Assembly: GCA_943358175.1 (NCBI GenBank)
Contig: CALRGV010000006.1
Location: forward strand, 2,607 to 66,606
DNA length: 64,000 nucleotides
From: Candidatus Peribacteria bacterium
GTDB taxonomy: Bacteria > Patescibacteriota > Gracilibacteria > UBA1369 > LOWO2-01-FULL-3
Direction of reading: 5' to 3'
Below are positions 13,066-54,379 of the stretch, piece after piece. Under the pieces are notes generated by a model. It saw only the letters and a list, made by a program, of their open reading frames with translations. It had not been told where the DNA came from and searched no databases. A program made the translations under genes and the position numbers. Every line of letters starts with the position of its first letter. Positions within the stretch are counted from its first letter, which is position 1.

Positions 13066-13067
13066 GC

Positions 13068-14051
13068 ATGCAAAACTTCTTGCGCAAAGTTAAATCAATT
13101 GCCCGCAAAGATCCTAAATCTATCGTCTTTCCGGAAAGTGAAGACGAAAGAATTTTAAAAGCCGTAGCAATAATCTCTCAACAAAAATTTGCTAAACCAG
13201 TTTTAATTGGAGACAAGCGCAAAATCAAGAACGCCTGCAAAAAGTTAAAATTAAAAATCGACTGGGAAGAAATCAGTATAGTCGATCCGACAAATAAAGT
13301 TTTAGTTAAAAAATACAGCGAAGCCCTCTTTTCCATCCGCAAAGATAAAGGCGTCACCGAAAAAGATGCTCGAAATTTAATCAAAGATCCCAACTACTTT
13401 GGCACCATGATGATACAGCTCGAAGATGCCGATGGTATGATCACCGGAGCCACTCATCCGACAGCCAATTCAATCAGGCCGGTTCTTCAGATTATAAAAA
13501 CTCGCGAAAAATTTCACAAAGTTTCCGGAATTTTCTTTATGGTTCTACATAATAAACCCCTGCTTTTTGCTGATGCCGCTATCACGGTAGAACCTGATGC
13601 TCATGACCTCGTAGACATCGCTATCGACACAGCGGAAACAGCAAAAAAATTTGGAATTAAACCAAAAATTGCTCTGCTATCATTCTCAACAAAAGGCTCA
13701 GCCAAGCATCCCTTGGTAGACAAAGTGACCGAAGCGGTAGCAATGATAAAAGACGAGAGACCGGACCTGCTGGTGGACGGAGAACTTCAAGTGGACGCGG
13801 CTCTTGTACCACAAATTGCCAAACGCAAATGCCCAGATTCTCCGATAAAAGGTGACGCCAATATACTAATTTTCCCAGATCTGCAAACCGCCAATATCGC
13901 CTACAAATTAGTGGAAAGATTAGCCAAGGCCAAAGCCATAGGACCATTACTTCAAGGCTTAAAAAAACCGGTCAACAAACTTTCCCGCGGCTGCAGCTAT
14001 GAAGACATCGTAAATGTAGCGGCTTTTACAGTATGCGAGTGTCAAGCATGA
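13068..14051 (+). CDS. pta: Phosphate acetyltransferase (short PTA_PTB form)
   Basis: IVFPESEDERILKA, DGELQVDAAL and SRGCSYEDIVN patterns. 327 aa; ackA is nearby. Confidence 0.9.
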   Translation: MQNFLRKVKSIARKDPKSIVFPESEDERILKAVAIISQQKFAKPVLIGDKRKIKNACKKLKLKIDWEEISIVDPTNKVLVKKYSEALFSIRKDKGVTEKDARNLIKDPNYFGTMMIQLEDADGMITGATHPTANSIRPVLQIIKTREKFHKVSGIFFMVLHNKPLLFADAAITVEPDAHDLVDIAIDTAETAKKFGIKPKIALLSFSTKGSAKHPLVDKVTEAVAMIKDERPDLLVDGELQVDAALVPQIAKRKCPDSPIKGDANILIFPDLQTANIAYKLVERLAKAKAIGPLLQGLKKPVNKLSRGCSYEDIVNVAAFTVCECQA

Positions 14052-14125
14052 GCGAAGCGAAATGCTCTCGGCCGGCCCCTACGCCGGCCTCAAAAAAAAG
14101 TTTTGCGAAGCAAAACACCTTACCC
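14049..14125 (+). repeat. GC-rich hairpin-module repeat, copy B1
   Basis: tgagcgaagcgaaa (14049-14062) recurs at 20070-20083. aaaagttttgcgaagcaaaacaccttaccc (14096-14125) recurs at 56372-56401 with 2 differences. Stems: ggccgg/ccggcc and gttttgc/gcaaaac. Confidence 0.75.
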
Positions 14126-14143
14126 TCACCCGCCCCCATCCCC

Positions 14144-14713
14144 ATGGACCAACCAGATCCAATAAACATTCCGGCCTACCAAAGGAAACGCAGCATTGCT
14201 GCCAAAGCTAGAAAAAAACCGGCTTATTTGGAAACAGCGCTGGACAGAGCCGTAAAGGCAAAAAAAGAACACAAAAGACAAAGAGCAAATAGAACAAAAA
14301 AATCGCCGGCAAGTTCAAGAAATCAATCAGTAGACACCTACATTCAATCACCAAATTCTTTCGAAGAAATTTCCATTCAAACTACTTCCGTCTTACCATC
14401 GCACGAACTTTTTCCAGATCCATTCCATGACAATCATTCATCAAGAAAATCCGAATTTCGAGAAATGAAAACTTGTGGCATTTGCGAAGGCTATTACGAC
14501 AAAATACAAGTAGCCATCGTCAGAGTCACCAGCCCACTTCGTGTGGGAGATAGTATTATTTTTGAAAAACAAGACGGGCTTTTCGAACAAGAAATAAAAT
14601 CCATGCAAATAGATCGCCGAGATATTACCCTCGCCACCACAGGCAGCGAAATTGGCTTAAAAGTACTACAAAAACCAACCGTCGGCTCACCGGTTTACAA
14701 AGTCCTAGAATAA
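14144..14713 (+). CDS. Protein with a basic disordered N-terminus and a C-terminal EF-Tu-domain-2-like beta-barrel ('translation elongation factor-like protein' family)
   Basis: C-terminal GYYDKIQVAIVRVTSPLRVGDSIIFEKQDGLFEQEIKSMQIDRRDITLATTGSEIGLKV. I start it at ATG 14144 because 14033-14143 overlaps pta and a repeat element. Confidence 0.6.
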   Translation: MDQPDPINIPAYQRKRSIAAKARKKPAYLETALDRAVKAKKEHKRQRANRTKKSPASSRNQSVDTYIQSPNSFEEISIQTTSVLPSHELFPDPFHDNHSSRKSEFREMKTCGICEGYYDKIQVAIVRVTSPLRVGDSIIFEKQDGLFEQEIKSMQIDRRDITLATTGSEIGLKVLQKPTVGSPVYKVLE

Positions 14714-16120: not shown

Positions 16121-18124
16121 CTACAAATCCTGCTCCAAAATCTTTGATTTCGTTAGCACATAGAGCTTCTTCGCACTCGGATCTACATACAAATCACGCA
16201 AATCACCAACTCCGTCAAACAAATACTGAGTTACGTAATTCAAATTCCCGGTATTGTTAGTGTCCTTTGAGTAAACTAAAACTCTGGCTTCCCTGCCATC
16301 CAACACAAATATCTGTTTCAATTTATCATTTGTATAAATAACTCTTGGATCAACTAAATTACTAAATGGCGGATTGTTCACAAAGAAAGAAACTTTGGCA
16401 CCACCATATAACTTCAAGAGATCACCGGTTGTCTGCAACAACCAAACATTAGCATCAATGGCAAAATCCTGAATTCCGGAAACGTCAGTCTTATCTGTGA
16501 TATAGCCTTCAGCCTTACTGAATTTATTGTTGATTCCCTTATAAGTATATTTCCAGATTTGATTAGCCGCAGTATCCAAAACATAGACTTTATTGCTCCA
16601 TGTAGCCAAAGCAGATCCTTTATGGAAAGCCCCATCATCACTATCCATAAAATTCATATTCCCATCCTTGAACTGAATCAGTTTTCCACTTTTGGTCAAG
16701 AAAATTATAGATTTCTGATCATCAAAACCGGTAGCGGCAATCACAGACTCCTCCTTATCGATAGTCAAAGGATCCTGAATCTGATCGAGCACCAATTCAT
16801 ACAAAGCATTATACTCATACGCAAACACTCTATCTCCTTCAGTCACAAAACCAAGAGCGTTCACATCCGCTCTCTTTTTAGCCAAATCAGCTACCACCTT
16901 AGGATTCACTACGCGATTAACATTGTCCAGCTTGTCACGGGTTTCCTCAAGCTGCAAAAGATAAATAGTGGCCTTCTCTCTATAAAATCCTGAATCCAAC
17001 ACAGACTTAGCATCCAAATAAGCCTTATCTAGAACATCCTTGGCTGCCTGCTTATCAGTTGCACTTTTAACGGTAGCATCGGTCAATTTATCTTGAACAC
17101 CGCTCAATAATTGATCATATTTTTGTAACTGAGCTTTCTCCACCCTATTACTATTTGCAAATATCACCAATACTCCCAAAATAACTATAACTCCAACCAA
17201 CAAAGCTAAAATTTTATTTTTTCCCAATCCGTTCCCAATCAAACTTTCTTTAAATCCTCCGAACCAACCACCAACTTTCGCGGCCATATCTCCACCAAAT
17301 CTTGCAACACCGGCACTTCTTTTACCTGAATCACGTTTAAAAACACTAAAGAACTTACCGGTCAAAGTATTTTTTCTTGCAGAAACACCCACTTCATCAG
17401 CTTCAAGCATACCCCTGCTCACATGATCCTCTCCTCCGGCTATTTCCTCCATATCACTTTGGCTTGCCCTTGAAAAAGCCACTCCAGTCAAACCAACTCT
17501 ACCCAAAATTTCAGTAGCAATAATATCTCTTACATTCGCCAAGGCCTGAGCCATATCCTTACGATGCACGGCTTCGGCTAAATCAGCTTTACCAATATAA
17601 CGAACAAGTCTTGTAGATGAAAACATCACCACGTCACCTTCTTCAATTTTACCATTGGCAATAGTTGAAAAAACATCTTCCCCATTACTTTCTTCATTCA
17701 AACCCTCGCTTAAAACACTGATATAACGCTTACGAATAAGATAGGCCTCCGCGTCTCCGGTCTGAGTCAAAAACAATTCATCACCAACAATTGCCGCCAC
17801 TATCACATTCAAATTACCAATATATCCGGAAGTTTTTTCAGCTTTAAACTTACACATGACAGCATTGATAGCCTTCAAAGCCACTTCAAAACGAGCATAT
17901 GGCTCATTAGCCACATCCTCAAAAAACACTTTCTGCATCGTCTCAAAAATTGTTTGAGCAATTTCCTCGGCATCCACAGGATTGTTCTGAATCTCCAAAT
18001 TGATAAAAATCTGCCCGCTTTTCTCCCCATGATCCTGAAAAAGATCATAAGCATAATTTTCTAAAAAACTATTATCGTCTCTACCAACAAACAAAAACTC
18101 ATAATCCGCTTTGAGTGCTGCCAT
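16121..18124 (-). CDS. Membrane-anchored hypothetical protein: N-terminal cytoplasmic domain, one TM helix, large C-terminal extracytoplasmic domain
   Basis: 667-aa ORF. TM helix ILALLVGVIVILGVLVIFA mid-protein. A weak PP2C/SpoIIE-like signature (GDAEAYLIR) has no clear metal-binding motifs, so function is uncertain. Confidence 0.5.
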   Translation of the reverse strand: MAALKADYEFLFVGRDDNSFLENYAYDLFQDHGEKSGQIFINLEIQNNPVDAEEIAQTIFETMQKVFFEDVANEPYARFEVALKAINAVMCKFKAEKTSGYIGNLNVIVAAIVGDELFLTQTGDAEAYLIRKRYISVLSEGLNEESNGEDVFSTIANGKIEEGDVVMFSSTRLVRYIGKADLAEAVHRKDMAQALANVRDIIATEILGRVGLTGVAFSRASQSDMEEIAGGEDHVSRGMLEADEVGVSARKNTLTGKFFSVFKRDSGKRSAGVARFGGDMAAKVGGWFGGFKESLIGNGLGKNKILALLVGVIVILGVLVIFANSNRVEKAQLQKYDQLLSGVQDKLTDATVKSATDKQAAKDVLDKAYLDAKSVLDSGFYREKATIYLLQLEETRDKLDNVNRVVNPKVVADLAKKRADVNALGFVTEGDRVFAYEYNALYELVLDQIQDPLTIDKEESVIAATGFDDQKSIIFLTKSGKLIQFKDGNMNFMDSDDGAFHKGSALATWSNKVYVLDTAANQIWKYTYKGINNKFSKAEGYITDKTDVSGIQDFAIDANVWLLQTTGDLLKLYGGAKVSFFVNNPPFSNLVDPRVIYTNDKLKQIFVLDGREARVLVYSKDTNNTGNLNYVTQYLFDGVGDLRDLYVDPSAKKLYVLTKSKILEQDL

Positions 18125-20579: not shown

Positions 20580-21503
20580 ATGAGTAACTCTAAATTTATC
20601 GCCGCAACGTTACTCATTCCCCTCTTCCTCTCCACAAACTTATCCACAGTTTCAGCGGATACTTTTACCGATGTGAGGGAAGGACATGCCTATTACACAG
20701 CCATTGTCCACCTCAAAGAAAAAAATATTATCAGTGGCTACGACGACGGCAGTTTCAAACCAAATCAGCAAATCAATCGCTCCGAAGCCCTAAAAATGCT
20801 CACTTTGGCCAGCGGAGTATTCAAAGACTCTCTTCCAAAACCAAAAGAAGCACCTTTTACCGATACTCCCCTTGGTGAGTGGTACACGGAATATCTCGCG
20901 GCAGCTAAAGATAAACACATTATCAACGGCTATGACGACGGCTCTTTCAAACCTGAATCTCCAATCAATTTGGCGGAAGCTCTCAAAATATATTTTGAAG
21001 CGGTAAATAGCGTAAATGAAAACACCATAAATTTTGAGGACTCATTCAACACTACTTTCATAGATACACCACCGGATTCTTGGTATATCCAATACACAAA
21101 TTACGCCGGCTCACGCGACCTGATAAACATCTACGAAGACAACACCATCAATCCTCACCAAATTATGACCCGTGGCTATTTAGCCGAAATCATTTACCGC
21201 ACAATGCAAGATCACGAGGGTTTTGATTTTGGTAAAGCCACCTATTATTTCGGTATCCCGGGCAAAATAAAAGAAAATTACAATTACGACGAGGAGTTAA
21301 TGGTCACGGCACACAAAACTTTGCCATTCGGCACCATCCTTGAAGTCACCAATATGGCCAATGGAAAATCCGTAAAAGTAAAAGTCACCGATCGCGGACC
21401 ATACGGATATGGACGCGTTCTGGATTTATCAAAAAAAGCCTTCGCGAAATTGGCTTCACCTAGCGTAGGAATCATTACCGTTCAATATCATGAGTATCAT
21501 TGA
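20580..21503 (+). CDS. Secreted SLH-domain protein with C-terminal RlpA-like double-psi beta-barrel domain
   Basis: Signal peptide; SLH repeats (GYDDGSFKPNQQINRSEALKM, twice); C-terminal LPFGTILEVTNMANGKSVKVKVTDRGPYG. Confidence 0.75.
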   Translation: MSNSKFIAATLLIPLFLSTNLSTVSADTFTDVREGHAYYTAIVHLKEKNIISGYDDGSFKPNQQINRSEALKMLTLASGVFKDSLPKPKEAPFTDTPLGEWYTEYLAAAKDKHIINGYDDGSFKPESPINLAEALKIYFEAVNSVNENTINFEDSFNTTFIDTPPDSWYIQYTNYAGSRDLINIYEDNTINPHQIMTRGYLAEIIYRTMQDHEGFDFGKATYYFGIPGKIKENYNYDEELMVTAHKTLPFGTILEVTNMANGKSVKVKVTDRGPYGYGRVLDLSKKAFAKLASPSVGIITVQYHEYH

Positions 21504-21837
21504 TTACGAATTAAAACACGGCAAAATTCGCAATAAAGAAACCCTGAAAAACGAAGCTCGTCGCACCATTCGCCTACTCATTGTTACCCTGACAATTATG
21601 ATTGTAGCTTTAAGTGTGATTTTTCTTTTCAACAGTAATACGGGCGCCCAAAAAGGCAATATCATGCAAAAGTTGAAAAGTGAAAACAAGGAATTAAAAA
21701 ATCAAGAACTCGAACTTACTACGAAAGTTACAGATTCAACTTCCTTCACGAATCTCGAAGAAAATGAACAAGTTTCCGAAATGCAAAAAACAGAAATACA
21801 AAGCTACATCACTCCCGAAGACAACAAAATAAAATAG
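21490..21837 (+). CDS. Small bitopic membrane protein with coiled coil, FtsL/DivIC-like architecture
   Basis: One TM helix followed by KLKSENKELKNQELEL. 14-nt overlap with the upstream gene. Confidence 0.4.
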   Translation: MSIIDYELKHGKIRNKETLKNEARRTIRLLIVTLTIMIVALSVIFLFNSNTGAQKGNIMQKLKSENKELKNQELELTTKVTDSTSFTNLEENEQVSEMQKTEIQSYITPEDNKIK

Positions 21838-21841
21838 CCAA

Positions 21842-21869
21842 TTGACATTGCCTTTGCAATCCTTATACT
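21842..21869 (+). promoter_or_regulatory. Sigma70-type promoter for tRNA-Glu
   Basis: TTGACA (21842-21847), N16, TATACT (21864-21869), about 25 nt before the tRNA 5-prime end. Confidence 0.45.
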
Positions 21870-21894
21870 AAGCTCTGCGAATTTCGACACACAT

Positions 21895-21969
21895 GGCGCC
21901 ATCGTCTAATGGTTAGGACAGCGGGTTTTCATCCCGTAAACGGGGGTTCGATTCCCCCTGGCGCTACCA
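21895..21969 (+). tRNA. tRNA-Glu (anticodon UUC), CCA encoded
   Basis: Hand fold: GGCGCCA/UC/GUC-UAAUGGUUAG-GAC/A/GCGGG-UUUUCAU-CCCGU/AAAC/GGGGG-UUCGAUU-CCCCC/UGGCGCU/A/CCA. 75 nt. Confidence 0.92.
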
Positions 21970-21970
21970 T

Positions 21971-23203
21971 CTACTTTTCCGCAACAACATTAACATCCTC
22001 CATTTTAGTCCCGGGAACATACCCGGCTGAAACTCTTTTTACTTTATCGCTAATATTCAAAACCGTTCCATTTACACTTGGCGCGGTAATTGGAGAATCC
22101 CCTTTCTCTAAAACTATATCACCAAAAACTCTTACCGATGATGACAAAGCCAAGCGATAATCTCCTTCAGGCAAACCATCAACCGGAAGATCCACTCGGA
22201 CAGAATCAAGTAAACTACCTCTGGATAATTGAGCAACCTCAACAGGCGCAGACGCATACTGCAACGTCCTATTAACAAATTCCGGCCTTAACCCATCCTT
22301 AATATTTGGCAACGCACCAGCCAGTTTTCTCGCATCCATTTCTCCAACCAAACCAGCCTTCACAATCACCGACTCAGGAATAACCACACCATCAGCATTA
22401 ACTTGCGGCGCAAGATTATCAAAAATCTGAGCCTGAGGTTCTTCAGTCAAACCCACATGCATCGTTTCAGAAATCAGCAAATCAATTGGCTTATCGTGCT
22501 GATATTTAGTTGCATCGGTACAAATAACTTTCACTCTCTCCTGAAGACCCAATCTCTCAATAATTTTCTCAGCCATTTTCGCGGAACCCTTATTCAATTC
22601 CAAGCAGGTAACTTTCACTTTTGAAGATTTCAAGGCTGCTAAAATACCAAAAAGAGGAATTGGCCCGGTACCAGCATCTACCATTTCTATTTCTTCACGA
22701 CGAACATCTAAATTTCCCAACGCTCCATACAATCCTTGAATAAATTTTATTGTTCGCTGTTCATCATTCATACACCCCAAAGCTCTTCCTAATTCTAATC
22801 CTTCACCATCCTCGATAAAATCAGCCTTATTCAAATTTTGTAGCAAAAATTCCTTCAATTCCCTCACGTCTCGACTCCACTCCGTATCCCCATTCAAATT
22901 GCCTAAAATACCGTCTACTCTAGCCCTCGCATTATCTTGAATTGCTGCATTTATAAAAGCCGGATCCTTAATTCGTTGACGAACAATTCTTTGCCTCTCT
23001 TTTGCGTCAAAAGCCGGTTCATTCAGCGCTCTATTAATGACAGGCATACAATGGCTACAAACAACTCCTACCATAGTATTCACTCCATCGACTCTAGGGC
23101 CACCTGCCTCAAACCTTCTATTCATCGCCAAATCCCTCGCACTTCCGGGATGAAGAACGGGCTCGCCCCTAATCACACAGGTTTTACTCGATTCAGCACC
23201 CAT
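21971..23203 (-). CDS. Class I SAM-dependent methyltransferase with PRMT-like motifs
   Basis: VDAGTGPIPLFG (motif I), VTCLELN, DLLISETMHVGL (resembles the PRMT ISEWMG motif). The track start 23263 is a TTG; ATG 23203 (MGAESSK...) is preferred. Confidence 0.55.
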   Translation of the reverse strand: MGAESSKTCVIRGEPVLHPGSARDLAMNRRFEAGGPRVDGVNTMVGVVCSHCMPVINRALNEPAFDAKERQRIVRQRIKDPAFINAAIQDNARARVDGILGNLNGDTEWSRDVRELKEFLLQNLNKADFIEDGEGLELGRALGCMNDEQRTIKFIQGLYGALGNLDVRREEIEMVDAGTGPIPLFGILAALKSSKVKVTCLELNKGSAKMAEKIIERLGLQERVKVICTDATKYQHDKPIDLLISETMHVGLTEEPQAQIFDNLAPQVNADGVVIPESVIVKAGLVGEMDARKLAGALPNIKDGLRPEFVNRTLQYASAPVEVAQLSRGSLLDSVRVDLPVDGLPEGDYRLALSSSVRVFGDIVLEKGDSPITAPSVNGTVLNISDKVKRVSAGYVPGTKMEDVNVVAEK

Positions 23204-23285
23204 CAAGAATAATTTAAAAGATATTAAATTATAACACGAATCAGCGCTCAGGCAAAGCCTCAAGCTCCCAATTCAAGCCAAAAAA

Positions 23286-23312
23286 TGGTATAATACCCAG
23301 ATTGATTATACC
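23286..23312. promoter_or_regulatory. Extended -10 promoter (TGgTATAAT) embedded in an 8-bp inverted repeat
   Basis: TG 23286-23287 and TATAAT 23289-23294 on the + strand. GGTATAAT (23287-23294) and ATTATACC (23305-23312) are exact complements, so a second TATAAT faces the minus-strand gene. Confidence 0.45.
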
Positions 23313-23323
23313 TTATTTTAAAT

Positions 23324-26300
23324 ATGAGTCTCGAAGGAAATCAAAATATTGTTAAAAGCGAGCAAGGCCGTCTTGATAAAATCGATACAAAAATCGACAA
23401 AAAAGTCGTACTTAGCGGTAAGGATTATTCCAATATTGTTTTCAACAAAGTAGATACCACCATAGCTAAGGTAAACACAGATTTTGGCATAAAAAATGAA
23501 GCAATACTTAAAGACCAAAATTATCAGAACATGAAGACGAAAGCCCTCAATGGCATCACTCAAACACTCTTTAAACTGGATGAAAAAAACATTTCCGAGC
23601 TTGCCGGAAAACTCGATAAACTTCTCACTGCAATTGAACAAGGCGGAGAAAAAATGAGTACCCTCGATGCCTCTCTAAATTCATCCGACAAACTTGCGCA
23701 ACAACTAAAAAGCCTTAAAGAAAAAGGCGATATAGACGGCATGGTAAAAGCCACAAAAGAATACATGACCGCCAACGAGCAAACGCTCAACGATGCCCAA
23801 AAAGTCGATCTCCTAAATCAGCTCAACGGACAACTCCTTGCTCAATCGGAACAACTACGCAAAGGAGAGATAATGAATGTAAAAGGTGTCGAATGGCGCC
23901 TCGGAGACACGATTGTAGCCTCTCGACTAAACATGGATGAAAACGGTATTCATCATGAAATACACGAAATAGCCAAAGTGGAAAAAATCGATACCGCACA
24001 AGGAGTTATGCTTCGTGAAGGAGCAACGACTAAAACAATTCCTCTCACGAATTTTGAAGAATATCTCGATACCGGACTCGCCATTCAAAATCAATATGGC
24101 AAAGAAAAAAATCCATTCGCGCTCGGCAATGAACGCCGCATTATTGCCACACAATCCCCCAGCGATACTCTCGCAAAAGAAGCTCAAGAAATGCAGCAAA
24201 AAGCGGCCTTAATTGCCCTCAAAGATCTCGTGGTAAAAGGCAGCGCACTCGCCTCCTGCAAAGATTTTACGCCAAAATCTCCGCGTACTTTTGCTTTAAT
24301 CAGAGACAAAAACATTGCAATTGATACCAACACGGGCGCCGTAAATTTCGACAAAACCTTTGATAATTGCAGCATTGAAGATCAACAAATTGTAGTTGAT
24401 GAATTAGTACAATTCCTCAAAGGAAAAGGAGCAGAGCAAAAGGTAGAAGATGCTAAATCTCCGGAAGAAAAACTCTTCTACCAAGCTGAATTATCACTTC
24501 AAAAAGGAAATATTTCAGAAGCCCGTGGAGATTGCATCAAATTCATGCAATCACTCAATGGAAAAGAGCTCACTCCGGATCTACTTCCACTGAAAGAAAA
24601 AGCCGAAGGCTATCTCAAGGGAATGTGGCAACACAGCATGAACGAGCTCAAACAAGCCAATGAAACAATGTTCGGCAAAGCCGCCCGCGAACAAGTCCGC
24701 GACAAAATGAAATATGGCATGCTCAAAGGCGATTCTCAACAAATGAAACGTTTTGAGGAAGCTTTTCAAGCTGTCCATAATCAAGCAAATGAACGCATCG
24801 AGGCCGCTTCTCAAGATTCAAAAACAGAAAACATTCTTCAAGATCCTTCCTCAATTTTCAAAGACCTTCCACAGCCATCAGGAGAAAATGCTAAAGAAAT
24901 CACGGCATGTCAGGATGCTTGGCAAAAAATTGCTTTCGCCCAAACCATGGACATGCGCAATAATTCTTCGGCGCAAAAACAAGAAAACTACGCTGATGCC
25001 GCAGACGCTCTCCGCGCACTCGGTCTCTATGATTTCTCCGAGGATTTCGTAAAAAAAGGCCTACGTGACCGCCTGGATATAAATAAAAACAGCGACACTC
25101 TGAAGGCAAAAAAACAAGAATGCGTCATGCGTCTCAACTCACACCGCGAAGAATATGCCACCCGCGTAAAAAAACAATTTCTGGAACAAACACTCAACCT
25201 ATCGGGACGCCCCGAGCTAAGCGAGAAGCAATTCAATAACATGATTGATCAAGCGATAGACCGCGCTGCCGATCAACAAATTGACGCCGCCCTTCTTAAA
25301 TCCGCCGTCACGCAAATGGACGAAGGAGGACTGAAAGGTTCTGACGCACGACTAGCACAAATTTACAAAAATATTGAAAATCCTAATGAAAATTTACTGA
25401 GTTTCGGTGACAAAGAAATTGACGCCCTCGGAGATAAAGTAATACATTTTGCCGCTGAAATGGCTGTACAAGCAGCCCTCATGGCAGTCACCGGTGGTAT
25501 AGGAAATATTGCCACTGCAGGTGTGCGCACCGCATTGATGAGCGCGGGAGCACGCGAAGCAATCGCGGGAGCCGCAGGATTTATGGCAAACGCCGCCGCC
25601 TTCGAAGTAGCTACAAAAGTTCTCTCTCCATACGTCACCGGTGGCCCGGGATTCACCACTGCCGAAGATTTCGCCCTCGACTATGGAAAATCACTTCTCA
25701 TGTTTGGCGCACTACACGGCTTAGGCAAATTCGCCGGTGCCGCAAGCAAAGAAGCCAGCGCCACACAAGTAGCAAGTTTAGGCCAAAAAGCGACAATTTA
25801 CACCGCTCAACTGGGAACAGAAGTTGCCGTCCTCGCCGGTCTCTCAGAACTCGAAGCCGCCCGCGATGGAAAACTAACATCTATGAATGGCGTCCACCTT
25901 CTCGGTGAAAACGTCGCCGCAGTCCTCGGTCTCCGCGCCGGAACAAAACTTGTGCATGCAAGCGGGTTAAATGAAGGATTCGCAAAAGCTACGGAAGCAA
26001 CCGCAAAAGTCGTAGGAAAAACCGGCAAAAATTTCGCCGAAGGAGCAAGCAACGTAGTTGAGCTAAAAACTGAAAAAACAGCACAAGTCCCAGAATCAAC
26101 TCCATCTAAAATAAGTACGGCAAAATTAAATCAAACAATTGAGGGTCCATTAACAAAATCATCAGAATTCAAAGTGAATGATCGTCCCCTGGGAGAAACC
26201 ATCAAACCACCGGCAAAAACAGATCCAAGAAGTTATGCTCAGACAATCGAAGAGATAATTAAAGACCCGAAGAAACAACAAGAACTTGGTATTAAACCAG

Positions 26301-27085
26301 AAGACTTGCCGGTAGTTATTAGATTCCATGAATATATTAAAAATCTTGAAGGGAAAGTGCAAACTCTGCGTGATGAAGCACTACAGGCAAGAGGAGTTCT
26401 TGATAGTATCATTGATGACATCGCTCTTAAATCAGACATCGCCGAGGGAGGTAAAATGAATAATGTACCAATCAAAGGAATGCCACGTATCATGGAAAAA
26501 GTTATAGATTCCACTTCTGAAGGTTATAATGGAAATATTTCCCAACTCCGTGATCTGGCCCGCGGCACGATTGTATTCAAGTCATTCGAAGATATCCCCC
26601 ATGCGCTAGAAACATTACAAAGTGATCCGAGAGTATCAAAATTATACGTAAAAAATAATATTGGCGATGCATACGGAAAGACACCTCATCCTGCCGGCTA
26701 CCGTGATGTCAACATAACTATGGAGGTTATCTCAAACGGAAAACCACATGTGGTTGAGCTACAACTCCACGTAAAAGAAATGATCGAAGCCAAAGAAAAA
26801 GGCCGTCCAGTCGATCCAGCAAAAATTGCCGATCTTGGATTTACAACGCATGATCAAGAGATGGTAAGAAAACTCGATCCAAAACTACAAATTGTAAGGG
26901 AAGGTAATATTGTTAAAGGTCATGAACTTTATGAAATTTGGCGTAAAATTGGAGAAAATGATCCTATGGACATGCAGATACTGAAGAAAAAACTAGAAAA
27001 CTTGATGCAAAAAGTCTACAATGATGCATGGCAAGATGTATTAAAAAAACACGATAGTAAGCCAGCTCTTAAAAAAGCCGCGTAA
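23324..27085 (+). CDS. Giant protein with C-terminal RelA/SpoT-type nucleotide pyrophosphokinase (alarmone-synthetase-like) domain
   Basis: C-terminal motifs PIKGMPRIMEKV, LRDLARGTIVF, PAGYRDVNITMEV, HVVELQLHV. The N-terminal ~1000 aa are unrecognisable. Gly/Ala-rich hydrophobic block mid-protein. Confidence 0.7.
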   Translation: MSLEGNQNIVKSEQGRLDKIDTKIDKKVVLSGKDYSNIVFNKVDTTIAKVNTDFGIKNEAILKDQNYQNMKTKALNGITQTLFKLDEKNISELAGKLDKLLTAIEQGGEKMSTLDASLNSSDKLAQQLKSLKEKGDIDGMVKATKEYMTANEQTLNDAQKVDLLNQLNGQLLAQSEQLRKGEIMNVKGVEWRLGDTIVASRLNMDENGIHHEIHEIAKVEKIDTAQGVMLREGATTKTIPLTNFEEYLDTGLAIQNQYGKEKNPFALGNERRIIATQSPSDTLAKEAQEMQQKAALIALKDLVVKGSALASCKDFTPKSPRTFALIRDKNIAIDTNTGAVNFDKTFDNCSIEDQQIVVDELVQFLKGKGAEQKVEDAKSPEEKLFYQAELSLQKGNISEARGDCIKFMQSLNGKELTPDLLPLKEKAEGYLKGMWQHSMNELKQANETMFGKAAREQVRDKMKYGMLKGDSQQMKRFEEAFQAVHNQANERIEAASQDSKTENILQDPSSIFKDLPQPSGENAKEITACQDAWQKIAFAQTMDMRNNSSAQKQENYADAADALRALGLYDFSEDFVKKGLRDRLDINKNSDTLKAKKQECVMRLNSHREEYATRVKKQFLEQTLNLSGRPELSEKQFNNMIDQAIDRAADQQIDAALLKSAVTQMDEGGLKGSDARLAQIYKNIENPNENLLSFGDKEIDALGDKVIHFAAEMAVQAALMAVTGGIGNIATAGVRTALMSAGAREAIAGAAGFMANAAAFEVATKVLSPYVTGGPGFTTAEDFALDYGKSLLMFGALHGLGKFAGAASKEASATQVASLGQKATIYTAQLGTEVAVLAGLSELEAARDGKLTSMNGVHLLGENVAAVLGLRAGTKLVHASGLNEGFAKATEATAKVVGKTGKNFAEGASNVVELKTEKTAQVPESTPSKISTAKLNQTIEGPLTKSSEFKVNDRPLGETIKPPAKTDPRSYAQTIEEIIKDPKKQQELGIKPEDLPVVIRFHEYIKNLEGKVQTLRDEALQARGVLDSIIDDIALKSDIAEGGKMNNVPIKGMPRIMEKVIDSTSEGYNGNISQLRDLARGTIVFKSFEDIPHALETLQSDPRVSKLYVKNNIGDAYGKTPHPAGYRDVNITMEVISNGKPHVVELQLHVKEMIEAKEKGRPVDPAKIADLGFTTHDQEMVRKLDPKLQIVREGNIVKGHELYEIWRKIGENDPMDMQILKKKLENLMQKVYNDAWQDVLKKHDSKPALKKAA

Positions 27086-27115
27086 TAAAAAACAATAAAC
27101 ATAACCAATAATTTT

Positions 27116-27391
27116 ATGGAAGAACCAGAAACAACAACAGGATGGGGTGATGACCCAGATAAGCCTTATGCAGACGTTTGCAAAGAGCGCGCAGGGACAA
27201 CTCTTTTTTGGCTTGTGGACAATGTACCTGTTAGAGAACAATACAGTACTGATGGACAAACCTCTCAACGCTTTGGGCTAAAGGAGGGCCAATGGGTACC
27301 GGGCTATCCCGGAGAATCCACATTCTTTGAAAATGCCTCAAGAGTTGAACAAGCTGACTTTGATGCAGCAGTAAACAAATCAACTAATTGA
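27116..27391 (+). CDS. Small acidic hypothetical protein (candidate immunity/antitoxin)
   Basis: 91-aa ATG ORF, 30 nt after the RSH-domain gene and 6 nt before the HD hydrolase gene. No recognisable motif. Confidence 0.5.
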   Translation: MEEPETTTGWGDDPDKPYADVCKERAGTTLFWLVDNVPVREQYSTDGQTSQRFGLKEGQWVPGYPGESTFFENASRVEQADFDAAVNKSTN

Positions 27392-27397
27392 TTCAGT

Positions 27398-28012
27398 ATG
27401 GAAAGTGACTTTGGAAATAAATTCGAAGACATTAAAGATAGTACCAAGTTGGAACAACAATTTTGGATACTGATTGAGTCTAAAATGCCACAGGCAAAAG
27501 AGAAGATAAAACAAGCATTCGCCTACTCAAAAGAAAAACATGAAGGGCAAGAACGTGACGAAGGAACTCCTTACTACTCTCACTGTATAGCTACAGCAAT
27601 AAATCTATTAGAGTACACCACTAGTCCCACTGAAGATCAAGTATGCATCGCCCTTCTCCATGATACCCTAGAAGATACGAATGCAACTTATGATGAACTG
27701 ATGGCTAAATTTGGTAACTACGTTGCCGAAGGAGTTCAATTACTATCAAAGAAGAGAGATGGGAAAAAAATTAGTAATGACGAATATTACGACGGACTTA
27801 GAGGTCGTAAAGATCTCATAGATATAAAAGGTAGCGACAGACTAGCCAATATTTTTTCAATTGTACATTCCCCAAGTCCGCAAAAACAAGAAAGATACCT
27901 TAGAGAAACTAGAGCTAATATTATTGGATTAGTTAGCAGCGTACATGAAGATTTCAGTAAAGTTATCGCGAGTGCAACAGATATGGCAGAAAAGAAAATT
28001 AGAGAAAAATAA
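27398..28012 (+). CDS. HD-domain small alarmone hydrolase (RelA/SpoT hydrolase-domain homologue)
   Basis: HEGQERDEGTPYYSHCIATA, ALLHDTLEDT, IKGSDRLANIFSI. These match the order and wording of (p)ppGpp-hydrolase HD_4 motifs. Confidence 0.8.
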   Translation: MESDFGNKFEDIKDSTKLEQQFWILIESKMPQAKEKIKQAFAYSKEKHEGQERDEGTPYYSHCIATAINLLEYTTSPTEDQVCIALLHDTLEDTNATYDELMAKFGNYVAEGVQLLSKKRDGKKISNDEYYDGLRGRKDLIDIKGSDRLANIFSIVHSPSPQKQERYLRETRANIIGLVSSVHEDFSKVIASATDMAEKKIREK

Positions 28013-28022
28013 TTATCAATTT

Positions 28023-28325
28023 ATGTCCACCGACACCCTGAAAAACCTGATTCGCCAATGCCTACTTCTCAAGCCGGAGCGCCGAGAAGGCCTCATTGCG
28101 CGCCTCGACACTTTGAATGAAAATCAAATTAAAGAAATGGAAAAAGCCATCACGGAATCAAACGAATTTCTGAGAAATATCATCGCAAAAACTTCAGAGA
28201 ACGAAGACCCAAACACCTTCAATCAAAAAATCGATCAAATTTGGAAAAAATACATTCAAGACACCGAAAACATCTCCAGTGGAATAGAAAACACCGCGGC
28301 CGATAATCTTTTGGCGAATTTATAG
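28023..28325 (+). CDS. Small helical hypothetical protein
   Basis: 100-aa ORF from ATG 28023, 10 nt after the hydrolase stop. The track start 27945 overlaps the hydrolase gene and is unlikely. Confidence 0.45.
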   Translation: MSTDTLKNLIRQCLLLKPERREGLIARLDTLNENQIKEMEKAITESNEFLRNIIAKTSENEDPNTFNQKIDQIWKKYIQDTENISSGIENTAADNLLANL

Positions 28326-28329
28326 AGCG

Positions 28330-28358
28330 TTGACCCCTTCCACTAAAGGCCCTATGAT
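28330..28358 (+). promoter_or_regulatory. Sigma70-type promoter placed for a leaderless Nudix mRNA
   Basis: TTGACC (28330-28335), N17, TATGAT (28353-28358), then 6 nt to ATG 28365. Confidence 0.5.
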
Positions 28359-28364
28359 CTCAGC

Positions 28365-28919
28365 ATGGCCTGGAAAGTTCTCAAATCCGAAATCGTTCTT
28401 GAAAACAAATTTTTCAAGGTGCACAAAGATCGTTGCGAAAAAAGTGACGGTAAAATTGTCGAAAATTATTACACCATCGAACGTCCGAACGTAGCCATCA
28501 TCGCCGCTTTCACCCCCCGGATGGAATTAATTATGATTAAACAATATCGCCATCCGGTCCGTAGCACAGACTATGAAATTCCAGCCGGCTTCATCGAACC
28601 CTTCGAAACCGACATCGCTCAAGCCGCAAAAAGAGAATTACTCGAAGAAACCGGTTACGAAGCGGAATCTTTAGAAAAAATTCAGGAAACATTTTCTTCT
28701 GCCGGATTTATGAGCAATCACATCAATTTCTTCATAGGCTTCAACGCAAAAAAAATCGCCGAACAAAAATTGGACGATAGCGAAGAACTCGAAGCTCATA
28801 TCATTCCCTGGACTCAAGCGCTGGAATTTTTACAACAAGAAAAAGTAAAAGACCTCGGATCTATTACCGGTATGCTTTTAGCTAAAAAATATTTAGAAAA
28901 ACATGATCTACCTCGATAA
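28365..28919 (+). CDS. Nudix hydrolase (ADP-ribose pyrophosphatase-like)
   Basis: Nudix box GFIEPFETDIAQAAKRELLEETGY. Confidence 0.85.
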   Translation: MAWKVLKSEIVLENKFFKVHKDRCEKSDGKIVENYYTIERPNVAIIAAFTPRMELIMIKQYRHPVRSTDYEIPAGFIEPFETDIAQAAKRELLEETGYEAESLEKIQETFSSAGFMSNHINFFIGFNAKKIAEQKLDDSEELEAHIIPWTQALEFLQQEKVKDLGSITGMLLAKKYLEKHDLPR

Positions 28920-30072
28920 CGCCGCCACCACACCGGTTGACCCCAAAGTCCTCGAAGCCATGCTCCCGTATTTTTGCGAAGAATACGGCAATGCCGAATC
29001 TCTGCATACAAAAGGCCAAAACGCCCGCATGGCTGTAGACACGGCTCGCGAAATCATTGCAAAAGTCCTCAATTGCCAAGCTACAGAAATTATTTTTACC
29101 AGCGGTGGAACCGAATCCAATAATCTAGCAATTTTTGGCGCGACTCGAGCCAATGTAAAAAAAGGCCGCCACCTCATCGTCAGCTCAATAGAACACTCTT
29201 CCGTGCGCGAACCATTCAACAAACTTGAAGAGGAAGGCTTCGAAATCACGCAGATAAAAGTAGACAAAGAAGGTTTCGTAAATCCAGCCGACATCGCCAC
29301 AGCTATTCGCCCTGACACAATTCTCGTATCCGTTATGTACGCCAACAATGAAATCGGCACTCTGGAACCAATCGCTGAAATTGGAAAAATATGCCGTGAA
29401 AAAAACATAATTTTCCACACCGATGCCTGCCAAGCCGCCGATTCTCAAATGCTCGACGTAAAAAAACTTCAGGTAGATATGCTGACTCTCAACGCCAGCA
29501 AAATCTACGGACCAAAAGGCGCCGGAGCTCTCTACGTAAAACACGGCATAAAAATTTCTCCACAAATTCTCGGCAGCTCCCACGAAATGGGAATACGCGC
29601 CGGCACACACAATGTTCCGGGAATAGTAGGACTAGGAAAAGCTTTAGAACTAGCCGTAATCGACCAGGACAAAAAATCCGCACACCTCACAGCTCTCCGC
29701 GACAAATTCATTAAAGGCATTTTAGAAAAAATCCCAAATTCACAATTAAACGGCCCAAATCCTTTCGATCCCAAATACGCGACCACCCCCTGTCCCCGCC
29801 TCCCAAACAACACAAATTTCACTTTCAAAGGAGTCGAAGGTCCAGACCTTCTCCTGCAATTAGACAATCTCGGCATCTACATTTCGACCGGCGCCGCCTG
29901 CAATATACCAGGCTCAAAACCCTCAAATGTTCTCACCGCCATCGGCATATCTAAAGAATCAATTCAAAGCAGCGTCCGCATGACTCTGGGCAAAACCACC
30001 AGCGAAGCAGATATCGATCATGTGCTGGAAGTACTACCCAGACTAATTGAAAAAATGCGCACACGAATATAA
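28903..30072 (+). CDS. Cysteine desulfurase (class V aminotransferase, NifS/IscS-like)
   Basis: YLDNAATTP, HTDACQA, NASKIYGPKG (PLP lysine), STGAACN (active-site Cys). Confidence 0.88.
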   Translation: MIYLDNAATTPVDPKVLEAMLPYFCEEYGNAESLHTKGQNARMAVDTAREIIAKVLNCQATEIIFTSGGTESNNLAIFGATRANVKKGRHLIVSSIEHSSVREPFNKLEEEGFEITQIKVDKEGFVNPADIATAIRPDTILVSVMYANNEIGTLEPIAEIGKICREKNIIFHTDACQAADSQMLDVKKLQVDMLTLNASKIYGPKGAGALYVKHGIKISPQILGSSHEMGIRAGTHNVPGIVGLGKALELAVIDQDKKSAHLTALRDKFIKGILEKIPNSQLNGPNPFDPKYATTPCPRLPNNTNFTFKGVEGPDLLLQLDNLGIYISTGAACNIPGSKPSNVLTAIGISKESIQSSVRMTLGKTTSEADIDHVLEVLPRLIEKMRTRI

Positions 30073-35222: not shown

Positions 35223-37778
35223 ATGGCTGAAAATGCATTACAAGAAGACTTAGACCTAAGTCCTCAAGAAAAACAGCAAGATAAAAATAATCAGAATGGA
35301 CCTGATGGCCTTAGCGATAAAAAACTCTCGGATAATGAGATTAAAGATTTGAAAGATGGGAAAACCAGCATCCCTAAACTGGTTGCCGAACGTATGCGCC
35401 TGAAAACAGCTGCCGAAGCCGAGATGAAGGAATTAGCCAAAGGAACAAACACCAAAGCTCCGGTTCTAGATCTAAGAGAATACCGCGATCTCCAAGCAGA
35501 GCTAAACACCACCGACAGCCCAGAGGAAACTCAAAAAATCCTGGATAAAATTCGTGATCTTCCAAAAAGAAAAGAAGCCCAAGCTGAAGAAGATAAAAAC
35601 GACGCCCAGGAACTCCCCCCGAACGACCCAAAACTGAAAGAACTTCAAACTAAATTCAACAAGATTTGTGATGACAATCAGGAACTCATCGGTGAAGGAC
35701 AAATCGACGGCAACAAAGCTTGGTTTGCGGAAGAAATGAGGAAAACTCCCACTCCCGCCCACCTCAAAGATCTGATCAAAAGAATGGAAGGTAAAGATAT
35801 TGAAGATAAAAACGGTCTCGCTCCTCGTCGTAAAGAATATGCAAAACTCACCGATTTGTTCAAAAAATACGGCCTGGACAGCCCCCAAGATTCCGCCTAC
35901 ATCAAAAAAGAAGGTCTCAGCGAACGTCAAAATTTCCGCAAACAAATTGAAGCCCTCGAAGATCATTTCTCAAAAATGAAAGATACCGGCTTCTATTCTC
36001 CGGAAAAAATAAAAGAGATGATGAAGGAAAACCTCAAAGCTGAAAATCCTGAAAAAATCACCGATAATATAAAAGCGGCCGGAGAAATCGCCCGCAAAGA
36101 AGCTGAAGGATTCACCCATTTGAACGAACAAGTTACCGTAGGAGGAGTCACTATTCACAAAATGAGTGAAGCCTCAAAAAAACAATATCTCGATTACTAC
36201 CGAGAATTAAACCTCAAAGATCGTAAAGAAAAAGGAGTGGACCAATGGCAAGCCATGGTCGACAACGAAGGAGCCCTAGCCAAACATTCAGATAAATTTT
36301 CCAATGTATATGCCGATCACGGTGTCCAAGCTCTCGATCAAATTTACAAAGATAATCCTGACGCCCTCCGTCTAGCCGTTCAGGGCTTCGAGACATTGGA
36401 TTTCATGCAAAAAGTAGATGCTTTAAAAAAGCACGCTGTCCTGGTAAAGGTCGCTAAAAACAAGGAAGAATTAGAACAAAATCTCACTTTCCAAGCAATT
36501 GGTGCTCATCTCGATAAAGCCACCGGCGATAAAAATATTTCCGGAAAAACTCGCGATAGATATCTCCAATTTTTCAAAGATCCAAACAACTTCAGAAATC
36601 CGGACACCAAAACGCCAGGAGATATGAAGGAGTTCAAAAAAGCTTACAGTGTTTTGATCAGCCCTACCCCGGACGAGAAACATAAAAATCTTGCAGCCTA
36701 TGAAGAACGTCGCAAAGAATTCGTCAAAGAATTAAAAAAATTGCAGGAAATTAATCCGGCAATTTCAGCTGAAGATATCAAAAAATGGCAGGACAAATAC
36801 GACGCTGAAGGCTGGACAAAACGTGAACAAATCCACAATCAAGAGTTGAAACCGAAAATGTCCAAAGAAAATGAAGATCGTAAAAAACGTATTGGTATCG
36901 AAGAAAAAGCCGGCATGAAAAAAGAGGACAAAGAAAAGAGCAAAGAAAGCGTAGCCGGACTCGCCGAAACAATCACAGCCGTCACCGAACTTATGGCCAA
37001 CGATCAAGGCGCCGAAGCCATGAAAAAACTGCTTGAATTCAATGAGACCCAACCGGACAATCCAAAAATTATTTTCTGGATGCAAACCGTTGCCAACTAC
37101 ATGAAAGAATTTGGCAGTGGCAAAAAACGTGAAGCAACAATTGATAAAGAACTCGAACAAGAAATGGAAAAAGTAGCCACCACCGATAAAGGCACTCAGG
37201 ACGAACTCCTGGAACAACAACTCAAAACCCTCAACATGGAAGGTGTAAAACAAAGTGAACAACGCCACAATCAGACTATTTCCGGCCAAGAAAGAGCCCG
37301 TAAAGAATCTATGGGCCGTGTACAAGAAGGCTCAGTGGAAGCCGAACTTACAACTGATGCCTACAAACAATTAGGCAAAGACTTCCAAATTAACAAAGAA
37401 GGAAAAGCTCAGAAAATCGAAGAAATTCAATTCAAAGATGGCAACATCAAAATGCAGGAACAAGATCGTTTCCGTATGAAACGCGAAACCTTCAAAGAAC
37501 AAACAAAACTTGATAAAAAAGAAGGTATGTTTACCGCCATGAAAGACAAACAGGGCAACGTCATTGATCACAAAGTTGCTGCAGCTCTACAACAAGCGGA
37601 ATTGGAAAAACTTGAAAAAGAAATGGCCGAAAGAGCTCAGAAAAAAGTGGAAAGCCGTGTTACTTCAAATGACACTCAAGGCGCCAAGATTTTTGATCTA
37701 AACACTAGAATAGCAGCTCGACGTAAAGCAAAAGAGCTTATCGACGAACAACGTCATGAAAAACTGAAAGCTGCATAA
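35223..37778 (+). CDS. Large (851 aa) highly charged Lys/Glu-rich orphan protein
   Basis: Uninterrupted ATG ORF. No signal peptide, TM helix or recognisable motif. The antisense ORFs on the track are shadows. Confidence 0.6.
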   Translation: MAENALQEDLDLSPQEKQQDKNNQNGPDGLSDKKLSDNEIKDLKDGKTSIPKLVAERMRLKTAAEAEMKELAKGTNTKAPVLDLREYRDLQAELNTTDSPEETQKILDKIRDLPKRKEAQAEEDKNDAQELPPNDPKLKELQTKFNKICDDNQELIGEGQIDGNKAWFAEEMRKTPTPAHLKDLIKRMEGKDIEDKNGLAPRRKEYAKLTDLFKKYGLDSPQDSAYIKKEGLSERQNFRKQIEALEDHFSKMKDTGFYSPEKIKEMMKENLKAENPEKITDNIKAAGEIARKEAEGFTHLNEQVTVGGVTIHKMSEASKKQYLDYYRELNLKDRKEKGVDQWQAMVDNEGALAKHSDKFSNVYADHGVQALDQIYKDNPDALRLAVQGFETLDFMQKVDALKKHAVLVKVAKNKEELEQNLTFQAIGAHLDKATGDKNISGKTRDRYLQFFKDPNNFRNPDTKTPGDMKEFKKAYSVLISPTPDEKHKNLAAYEERRKEFVKELKKLQEINPAISAEDIKKWQDKYDAEGWTKREQIHNQELKPKMSKENEDRKKRIGIEEKAGMKKEDKEKSKESVAGLAETITAVTELMANDQGAEAMKKLLEFNETQPDNPKIIFWMQTVANYMKEFGSGKKREATIDKELEQEMEKVATTDKGTQDELLEQQLKTLNMEGVKQSEQRHNQTISGQERARKESMGRVQEGSVEAELTTDAYKQLGKDFQINKEGKAQKIEEIQFKDGNIKMQEQDRFRMKRETFKEQTKLDKKEGMFTAMKDKQGNVIDHKVAAALQQAELEKLEKEMAERAQKKVESRVTSNDTQGAKIFDLNTRIAARRKAKELIDEQRHEKLKAA

Positions 37779-41505: not shown

Positions 41506-41630
41506 ACTCAAACCATATCAACCAAAGTTAAAATAAAGTTAAAATTTTTATAAATTCGTAAAAAAATCCAGCAACATCACTAGCGATTTAGCGTATATGT
41601 CTATTGATAAAAGAGCTTAACGGTCCTAAT

Positions 41631-54335: not shown

Positions 54336-54379
54336 TAAGGGTTAGGAATGAGATTACATGCCCGTACTTAGACGAGCCC

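Follow-up and report, generated by a model that had tools for sequence, protein, structure and literature searches.

Patescibacteria, also known as Candidate Phyla Radiation (CPR) bacteria, are thought to live on other cells, and the proteins that they use against hosts or rivals are barely known. Type IV secretion systems (T4SSs) without known substrates are widespread among them (PMC12102498). A gene for a protein of 1253 amino acids (aa) with a RelA/SpoT-type end, located at 23324..27085 on the + strand of a 64-kb stretch of contig CALRGV010000006.1, raises the question of whether it encodes a toxin aimed at other cells, a toxin that acts within its own producer, or an enzyme of the producer's housekeeping metabolism. 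The whole 64-kb stretch was analysed and is called the window below, and coordinates are positions in the window unless another locus is named. Our answer is that the locus is probably a polymorphic toxin/effector system, made up of a large carrier and an interchangeable C-terminal enzyme, referred to as the warhead.

The open reading frame (ORF) is present as it was given in the preliminary description of this DNA. The gene was recovered in identical form, with the same neighbours, from three independent assemblies (ENA ERZ27280196, the NCBI metagenome-assembled genome GCA_964684425.1, and Logan ERR4405442), which excludes an assembly chimera, and homologues whose first residue coincides with its own support the start codon. 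At its full length the protein has no match in Pfam or NCBIfam. It can be read, on the + strand, as a carrier, a linker and a warhead of the RelA/SpoT homologue (RSH) type. The carrier consists of a conserved extreme N-terminus (aa 1-50; 23324..23473), a Lys/Glu/Gln-rich body with 30% charged residues and no recognisable domain (aa 51-703; 23474..25432), and a Gly/Ala-rich hydrophobic block that was delimited by composition, hydropathy and conservation (aa 704-890; 25433..25993). A Pro/Thr/Lys-rich linker follows (26045..26263), recognised by its composition and by the loss of homology to the related locus L004, and then a Tas1/Apk1-like RelA/SpoT synthetase (toxSYNTH) domain (aa 981-1253; 26264..27085), which was assigned from a PF04607 match, a Tas1 match, an AlphaFold2 (AF2) model and Foldseek.

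The evidence that carries our reading comes from the behaviour of the C-terminal end among homologues. Only two full-protein relatives were found among 5.8 billion clustered proteins (P0002 in L004 and P0003 in L005), plus one from a genome scan (in L006), and all three have the N-terminal part alone in common with the window protein. P0002 is 72% identical in aa over aa 1-~890, with similarity fading after aa ~907 and nothing related beyond; the last conserved carrier motif is NFAEG (aa 903-907). At the DNA level, homology between the window and L004 covers 21841-21972 (the tRNA), 23278-25961 (77% nucleotide (nt) identity) and 28028-29244 (80% nt identity), and it is lost at 25962-28027. In the window, this swapped segment contains the linker as its left recombination junction, the RSH domain, a 91-aa ORF (orf91) and a small alarmone hydrolase (SAH), while in the same place L004 has a linker, then a kinase-like domain (GSGGMG...AIK...HGDLKELN; its Pkinase match, E=9e-6, is under the threshold), and an ORF of 183 aa, with neither orf91 nor an HD hydrolase. 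To the right of the segment, a 100-aa ORF and a NUDIX gene are kept in both loci. The L006 carrier is 24% identical and has a kinase-like end 37% identical to that of L004, followed by a homologous 183-aa ORF; one pair of warhead and partner has thus moved between diverged carriers. P0003 and the L006 protein, in turn, are collinear to aa ~1450 and have unrelated ends after it. C-terminal replacement in two independent lineage pairs, together with a pair that moved between carriers, is what defines a polymorphic toxin system (PMC3482391). The polymorphic layout that had been proposed from the window sequence is therefore borne out by homologues, which keep an N-terminal part of ~900 aa and exchange the C-terminal domain along with the downstream ORFs.

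Composition and spacing agree with a transferable unit. The GC content at third codon positions (GC3) is 0.29 in the warhead part, 0.30 in orf91 and 0.28 in the SAH gene, vs. 0.40 in the carrier and 0.40-0.50 in the right-flank genes (0.50 in the 100-aa ORF), and by this measure the cassette is foreign and was acquired as a unit. The spacers downstream of the toxin gene measure 30, 6, 10 and 39 nt. No + strand terminators were found inside the operon, promoter-like matches were at chance level, and no direct or inverted repeats were found at the cassette borders.

The alternative ends have features of their own. The kinase-like warhead and its 183-aa partner lie at 5036-6340 and 6374-6925 in L004 and at ~12490-13460 and 13502-14053 in L006, and if they were a polymorphic toxin of the kinase type and its dedicated immunity protein, the pair would be of interest by itself. 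Before the last domain, P0003 (aa ~1240-1260, L005) and the L006 gene (7995-13460) also have an internal HELQH (HExxH) region, a candidate releasing metallopeptidase that has no match in Pfam.

The four RelA_SpoT motifs that had been noticed in the C-terminus were all located, in the expected order, within aa 1049-1150: PIKGMPRIMEKV at aa 1049-1060 (nt 26468-26503), LRDLARGTIVF at aa 1075-1085 (nt 26546-26578), PAGYRDVNITMEV at aa 1123-1135 (nt 26690-26728) and HVVELQLHV at aa 1142-1150 (nt 26747-26773). The position of the domain was given correctly, and its size of ~170 residues has to be revised: in both the alignment and the AF2 model it extends over about aa 981-1245, with a long helix at its N-terminal side and a helical cap at its C-terminal side. 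A hidden Markov model search, which had been suggested as a check, matched the excised C-terminal 253 aa to PF04607 (RelA_SpoT) with E=6e-6 and 27.0 bits, exactly the gathering cut-off. No HD, TGS or ACT domain was found with Pfam in the full-length protein or the excised C-terminus. A long RSH enzyme (Rel/RelA/SpoT, with the order HD-SYNTH-TGS-ACT/RRM) was therefore ruled out, SYNTH being C-terminal here and standing without HD, TGS and ACT, in agreement with the earlier view that this is not a housekeeping stringent-response enzyme.

The sole PDB sequence match of the C-terminal domain was Tas1 (6OX6_A, E=3.8e-7). Tas1 is the (p)ppApp synthetase of the Pseudomonas aeruginosa type VI secretion system (T6SS). 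An exhaustive HMMER search of 1.84 billion representatives with the domain gave 676 relatives (29 at E<=1e-10), while a word-indexed homology search gave no match for the domain and nine for its profile. The profile of a 15-member alignment of the synthetase clade (A2) was compared with the PDB and hit Tas1 at 3.3e-28, RelP/YwaC at 1e-7 and Rel/RelA at 1e-5 to 1e-4, with Tas1 ahead of the next match by 67 bits; FaRel, FaRel2 and CapRel were not among its sequence matches at E<=1. Folding of the domain by AlphaFold without an alignment reached a predicted local distance difference test score (pLDDT) of 40, and the AF2 model built from the A2 alignment reached a mean pLDDT of 90.6 and a predicted TM score (pTM) of 0.83. 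When this model was compared with the PDB using Foldseek, the best 50 of 54 matches at E<=1e-3 were all RSH synthetases (RelP, RelQ, SaEAS 8VX3, CapRel, Rel, SpoT, FaRel and FaRel2), with target-normalised TM scores of 0.6-0.7 and with RelP and RelQ ranking first. The structural comparison that had been proposed thus yielded a confident model, with RelQ, CapRel and FaRel2 among its matches. The best viral match was a phage protein named Tas1, followed by phage polyvalent proteins of ~1000-1300 aa with a RelA/SpoT end.

Residues K1059, D1077, R1080, Y1126, E1145 and Q1147 are invariant in the 15 clade members and K1051, R1055 and D1128 nearly so, and these conserved residues align with the Tas1 motifs. 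Going by what is established for RSH enzymes, they correspond to the basic helix that binds ATP, the Asp that binds Mg, the Tyr of the G-loop and the strand with E-x-Q. Exchange of the equivalent Asp or Tyr inactivates two other RSH synthetases (SaEAS D121A, PMC12691689; FaRel2 Y128F, PMC11782079). The presence of a RelA/SpoT-type domain is thereby confirmed, far beyond chance: the domain is an RSH synthetase, and by sequence the toxin Tas1 is its closest relative of solved structure. In 81 of the best 150 of the 676 relatives, which are 130-3127 aa long, the domain lies at most 30 aa from the C-terminus, and a Pfam scan of eight long relatives found no known delivery domains.

Two of the domain relatives, P0018 and P0020, have 6-7% Trp and only 0.6% Gly, with Trp at conserved Gly columns (DIIRWSLEY vs. 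DLARGTLEY). This looks like UGA read as Trp where it codes for Gly (code 25), and it would point to Gracilibacteria or Absconditabacteria as sources, while the near-lack of ordinary Gly codons is odd in itself.

Downstream of the toxin gene, small ORFs and a dedicated hydrolase had been described, and they correspond to a 91-aa ORF, a 204-aa HD_4/SpoT-type hydrolase and a 100-aa ORF. The first, orf91 (27116..27391, +), has homologues directly downstream of the RSH clade in at least nine other loci (L007, L008, L009, L010, L011, L012, L013, L014 and L015), and in L016 and L017 an orf91-like gene follows the toxin by alignment. The toxin proteins of these loci range from 308 aa up to 1431 and 1654 aa, and their N-terminal parts are unrelated to the window carrier. 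No Pfam match was found for orf91, and comparison of its family profile with the PDB, including Tis1 (the partner chain in 6OX6), gave nothing meaningful. As it is strictly linked to one toxin clade, orf91 is a candidate cognate immunity protein or antitoxin, and the orf91-like proteins are a new candidate immunity-protein family.

The 204-aa ORF (27398..28012, +) is a small alarmone hydrolase of the SpoT-type HD family and a candidate enzymatic antidote. It matches PF13328 (HD_4; 1.9e-11, 44.4 bits vs. a cut-off of 27.2) and TIGR00691 (3e-20), and in the PDB it matches Rel hydrolase domains and stand-alone SAHs at 1e-14 to 1e-11, and also Mesh1 and a (p)ppApp hydrolase. Its motifs are intact (HEGQER, PYYSH, HDTLED and SDRLAN, for HxGQxR, PYxxH, HDxxED and DRLxN). 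The trio of toxin, ~85-aa ORF and HD_4 hydrolase recurs in L011, L013 and L014, and in L010 and L012 the contig ends before the third gene. A mobile three-gene cassette of toxin domain, putative binder and SAH is thus documented on unrelated carriers. The third ORF, of 100 aa (28023..28325, +), is conserved with the carrier, and the swapped cassette ends at it on the right. Next comes a NudE-like NUDIX hydrolase gene (28365-28919, +), which was considered as part of the module and rejected, being syntenic in L004 whatever the warhead; a role in alarmone clearing is possible.

Several observations were made on relatives of these genes. In P0020 (1066 aa), a synthetase domain of the toxin type (aa 548-834) is fused to a SpoT-type HD domain (aa 852-1020), in the order SYNTH then HD, opposite to that of long RSH enzymes, and this forms a Rosetta-stone link between warhead and hydrolase. 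Short members of the toxin clade (L012 837-1421, L016 4439-5020 and L017 397-978) share an ORF of ~193 aa immediately upstream (44% identity), which may be a further partner of the short toxin forms. In L008 (1-4900 and 9510-12927), a short toxin with an orf91-like gene lies beside a relaxase, NikA and two Ser/Thr kinase genes, which suggests that this module is carried on a mobilisable element.

Taken together, these data suggest the following mechanism. A carrier family of ~900 aa, common to a few Peregrinibacteria-type genomes and accompanied by a helical protein of ~100 aa, would bear an interchangeable C-terminal enzyme behind a Pro/Thr-rich linker. In the window, this enzyme is predicted to take pyrophosphate from ATP and attach it to an adenine or guanine nucleotide at the 3'-OH, and would thereby form (p)ppApp and/or (p)ppGpp and drain the ATP/ADP or GTP pools; the CCA end of tRNA is a less likely acceptor. 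Either reaction would arrest or kill the cell in which the warhead is active, whether a host or a competitor is the presumed target. In the producer, orf91 may bind and block the warhead and the HD hydrolase may remove the 3'-pyrophosphate from its product, so that both putative protections would be encoded in the same acquired cassette. Among characterised Apk1 homologues, some form (p)ppApp, some (p)ppGpp alone and some both alarmones (PMC12691689), and because they differ in this way the product of the warhead cannot be called from homology. Nor does the hydrolase narrow it down, as the SAH of the FaRel operon is described as promiscuously neutralising the toxic products of toxic small alarmone synthetases (toxSAS; PMC11782079).

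From aa 1 to ~907 the carrier has no match in Pfam, NCBIfam, PHROGs or PDB profiles, and PADLOC gave marginal matches only. Its N-terminus is hydrophilic and no Sec signal was found, so the preliminary description was right in seeing no signal peptide. The extreme N-terminus follows the pattern EG.Q....EQ.RLDKID.K.DKKV..GKDY..IV..KVD and is 60% identical to P0003 over aa 1-50, vs. 14-30% over most of the carrier, and it may be a recognition or secretion signal. The Gly/Ala-rich block was also recognised correctly from the sequence (aa ~700-890, with 21% Ala and 13% Gly): charged residues make up 16%, several 19-aa windows reach a Kyte-Doolittle (KD) hydropathy of 1.0-1.42 (maximum KD19 1.42), 31 columns are invariant in four homologues, and an island within it is 43% identical to P0003. 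It is a candidate membrane-insertion or translocation segment.

The carrier is accompanied by the family of the ~100-aa helical protein in four of four loci, where the small gene lies downstream (window, 28023-28325; L004, 6932-7237) or immediately upstream (L005, 1448-1774; L006, 7652-7978, with a second copy at 14053-14412). The 100-aa ORF has no match to known families, PHROGs included, and is a candidate helper, adaptor or chaperone for recognition or export. As a two-helix protein it recalls the small helical targeting factors of LXG toxins from type VII secretion systems (T7SS), and homology to any family was not detected. A 90-aa ORF upstream of P0005 and a 104-aa ORF upstream of P0007 were examined as further members and rejected, their similarity being undetectable. 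The carrier profiles A1 and A4 had no match in 150 toxin-bearing proteins, and since they find neither P0005 nor P0007, the combination of coil and hydrophobic block in those two proteins is a likeness by analogy only. The L006 protein, the only member of the carrier family with a named source, is from an 'uncultured Candidatus Peribacteria bacterium' (phylum Peregrinibacteriota), with which the guess of a CPR-like lineage, made from the letters alone, is consistent; the placement of the window itself in this lineage is indirect.

It is conceivable, and here we are more doubtful than confident, that the carrier and its ~100-aa partner form a previously unknown delivery module of Peregrinibacteria-type CPR bacteria, which would move interchangeable enzymes across a membrane into the host cell of the epibiont. 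The enzymes would be the alarmone synthetase, the kinase-like domain, and further ones that follow a releasing peptidase of the HExxH type, and the route could be the patescibacterial T4SS, which has no known substrates, or self-translocation through the Gly/Ala block. If true, the alarmone-synthetase warhead would be the first effector to be identified with which a CPR bacterium kills or reprogrammes the cell it lives on, through a stringent-like or ATP-depleting state.

Several results weigh against the interpretation as a polymorphic toxin, or limit it. No known trafficking domain or signal peptide was found in the protein with Pfam, NCBIfam, PHROGs, PADLOC or PDB profiles, and no secretion-system genes, T6SS included, among the ORFs scanned in the window, which leaves export without direct support; if it takes place, it may use an undescribed route. 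Four members of the carrier family are known, two metagenome scans (one seeded with the N-terminal motif, the other with the Gly/Ala block) gave no further carriers, and the polymorphism consequently rests on two lineage pairs. The maximum KD19 of the Gly/Ala block is under the usual transmembrane threshold, and orf91 has no sequence similarity to Tis1 or to pZFD antitoxins. As for the warhead, the Pfam score lies right at the cut-off and was obtained for the excised domain alone; the Tas1 profile score is inflated by one member of the A2 alignment, P0040, that is visibly Tas1-like; and Tas1 is absent among the best 50 of 54 Foldseek matches in the PDB, which RelP and RelQ lead, so that the label 'Tas1-like' rests on sequence.

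The rival explanation that survives best is an intracellular toxin-antitoxin (TA) or anti-phage (abortive infection) module, in which the N-terminal part acts as a sensor or scaffold that silences the RSH effector until a trigger arrives. The effector would then poison its own producer, orf91 and the SAH would be antitoxins, and the swapping of RSH and kinase-like ends would reflect the evolution of defence systems. The enzymology fits, as toxSAS are well-known TA and defence effectors and SAHs known antitoxins (PMC7229694, PMC11782079), and so does the lack of a detectable secretion signal or machinery in the protein and the 64-kb window. Defence effectors are, on the other hand, usually auto-inhibited in cis and do not need an effector-specific immunity gene, whereas the window combines a conserved N-terminus of ~900 aa with a variable C-terminal enzyme and a co-varying small ORF, which is the signature of polymorphic toxins. 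The short relatives (308-436 aa) with an orf91-like gene do resemble bicistronic TA modules, one of them beside relaxase genes, but the long carrier adds a conserved Gly/Ala hydrophobic block and a small helical partner, as is often seen in exported toxins. The neighbourhood also speaks for this rival, as the locus adjoins a tRNA gene and a variable gene that resembles methyltransferases and weakly matches mad2 of PADLOC; against it, the toxin itself has a marginal PADLOC match (PDC-S33, E=0.007) and its partners none. On balance we consider this explanation unlikely.

A housekeeping function is far harder to reconcile with the data. The locus would be a split alarmone system, with the synthetase and the HD hydrolase as a signalling pair for (p)ppGpp/(p)ppApp and the N-terminus as a membrane-associated regulator. 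The two enzymes are indeed encoded side by side, small genomes sometimes split or lose Rel, and no long RSH gene was found in the 64-kb window, a negative that covers the window alone. At the same locus, though, L004 has a kinase-like domain and neither a synthetase domain nor a hydrolase, the codon composition of the cassette is foreign, a dedicated small partner travels with the domain in at least nine loci, and the nearest characterised sequence relative is the toxin Tas1 and not RelQ or RelP. We regard this reading as very improbable. A last reading, in which a structural, surface or cytoskeletal protein ends in an RSH-like domain that is repurposed or has lost its catalysis, plays no part as a toxin and has its neighbours by coincidence, would suit a Pfam score no higher than the threshold and a carrier without assignable function, but is scarcely credible given the canonical donor, Mg and acceptor residues conserved across the clade, the confident predicted fold that matches active enzymes, and the linkage to orf91 and SAH kept across unrelated contexts.

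Upstream of the toxin gene lie rpmH, rnpA, yidC, jag, a gene for an SLH/DPBB protein, tRNA-Glu (21895-21969) and the divergent methyltransferase-like gene, and the rest of the 64-kb window is housekeeping (FtsK, DacB-like, GltX, ComEC, LCP and DnaK). A prophage or tape-measure reading was rejected, as the flanks are conserved housekeeping genes and there was no PHROG match. A second variable slot was noticed directly after tRNA-Glu(ttc), at 21971-23263 (-) in the window and 205-1911 in L004, with both of its sides, the tRNA and the 5' end of the toxin gene, conserved. In the window it is occupied by a gene resembling class-I S-adenosylmethionine (SAM) methyltransferases (PADLOC mad2 1.5e-8; weak PRMT5/GidB Pfam matches), and in L004 by one for an unrelated 568-aa protein with a CxxxCxxC motif. 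A paralogue at 53982-54341 (-; E=7.6e-7) was seen for a 115-aa ORF (21490-21837, +) that combines a coiled-coil-like tail with one hydrophobic segment, and two large ORFs, at 16121-18124 (-; 667 aa) and 35223-37778 (+; 851 aa), have no Pfam match at E<=1e-5. Two SLH-domain proteins are encoded at 20580-21503 and 41604-44132, the additional domain being an RlpA-like DPBB in one and CAP in the other, and they point to an S-layer-anchored surface proteome in the organism.

How the locus relates to known systems can now be stated, starting with the hydrolase. The 204-aa ORF is like other small alarmone hydrolases (PaSAH 6YVC, 6Z3N/6Z3O, and Mesh1) in its HD_4 domain, motifs and single-domain size, and differs from them in being part of a mobile toxin cassette. 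For double protection, the nearest precedent is the FaRel operon of Cellulomonas marina, aT2faRel - faRel - aTfaRel, where a binding antitoxin and an SAH antitoxin flank the toxin (Jimmy et al. 2020, PMC7229694; Dominguez-Molina et al. 2024, PMC11782079), and a toxin domain, a small ORF and an SAH also make up the trio in the window. An adjacent SAH, as in FaRel-type toxSAS, is therefore present, whereas a small single-domain cytoplasmic toxin is not: FaRel stands alone between its antitoxins, while the window domain makes up the last ~270 of 1253 aa, with both protectors downstream. FaRel and FaRel2 are also weaker fold matches only of this domain, and not sequence matches.

With classical polymorphic toxins, the locus shares the conserved N-terminus, the variable C-terminal toxin and the co-varying candidate immunity gene; the HExxH regions upstream of the L005 and L006 warheads resemble 'releasing peptidases' (PMC3482391), and the same fold as that of the window domain ends the phage polyvalent proteins of ~1000-1300 aa found with Foldseek. 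It differs from them in that its trafficking module is not any of the catalogued ones, neither a trafficking domain nor a link to a secretion system being recognisable at the window locus, and in that orphan toxin/immunity cassettes are missing downstream. The alternative warhead is protein-kinase-like here, and 'protein kinase' does not occur as a term in the first 300,000 of the 357,715 characters of the 2012 catalogue (PMC3482391). The statement that no characterised RSH protein has this architecture made the concept appear newer than it is. Polymorphic toxins with RelA/SpoT-like toxin domains (T7SS/LXG toxins, XopAD effectors of type III secretion systems, and MuF) were already catalogued in 2012 (Zhang et al., PMC3482391), Ahmad et al. 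(2025, PMC12691689) link about 1,369 Apk1/Tas1 homologues to LXG, XopAD, MuF, DUF4157, Rhs/PAAR or Sec signals, and MuF phage toxins such as Apk2 have a RelA/SpoT-like toxin domain (PMC12226406). CPR or Patescibacteria are not mentioned in the survey of PMC12691689, and in our literature search neither polymorphic toxins nor effectors of the alarmone-synthetase kind turned up as reported from CPR/Patescibacteria.

The closest relative by sequence remains Tas1/Apk1 (PDB 6OX6). Tas1 itself was reportedly described in 2019. The two share the motif pattern PIK..R...K, DLAR.T, GY..VN and E.Q and, in the reading proposed here, also a C-terminal RSH warhead on a larger delivery protein and a protective gene directly downstream. 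In contrast to the Tas1/Apk1 set, the window protein has no PAAR, Rhs, LXG, XopAD, MuF or DUF4157 domain and no Sec signal, orf91 is not Tis1-like by sequence, the cassette includes an HD hydrolase, and the lineage is CPR-type. The kind of toxin is thus already known, and what is new is the carrier family, the putative helper protein, the candidate immunity family of orf91, the recurrent cassette of warhead, putative binder and SAH, and the lineage. As a concrete candidate for a CPR protein directed against hosts or rivals, the locus offers a warhead with assayable biochemistry, two candidate antidotes and a carrier that can be probed, and with it alarmone-synthetase toxins like Tas1/Apk1 are probably extended to another lineage and to a delivery scaffold not seen before.

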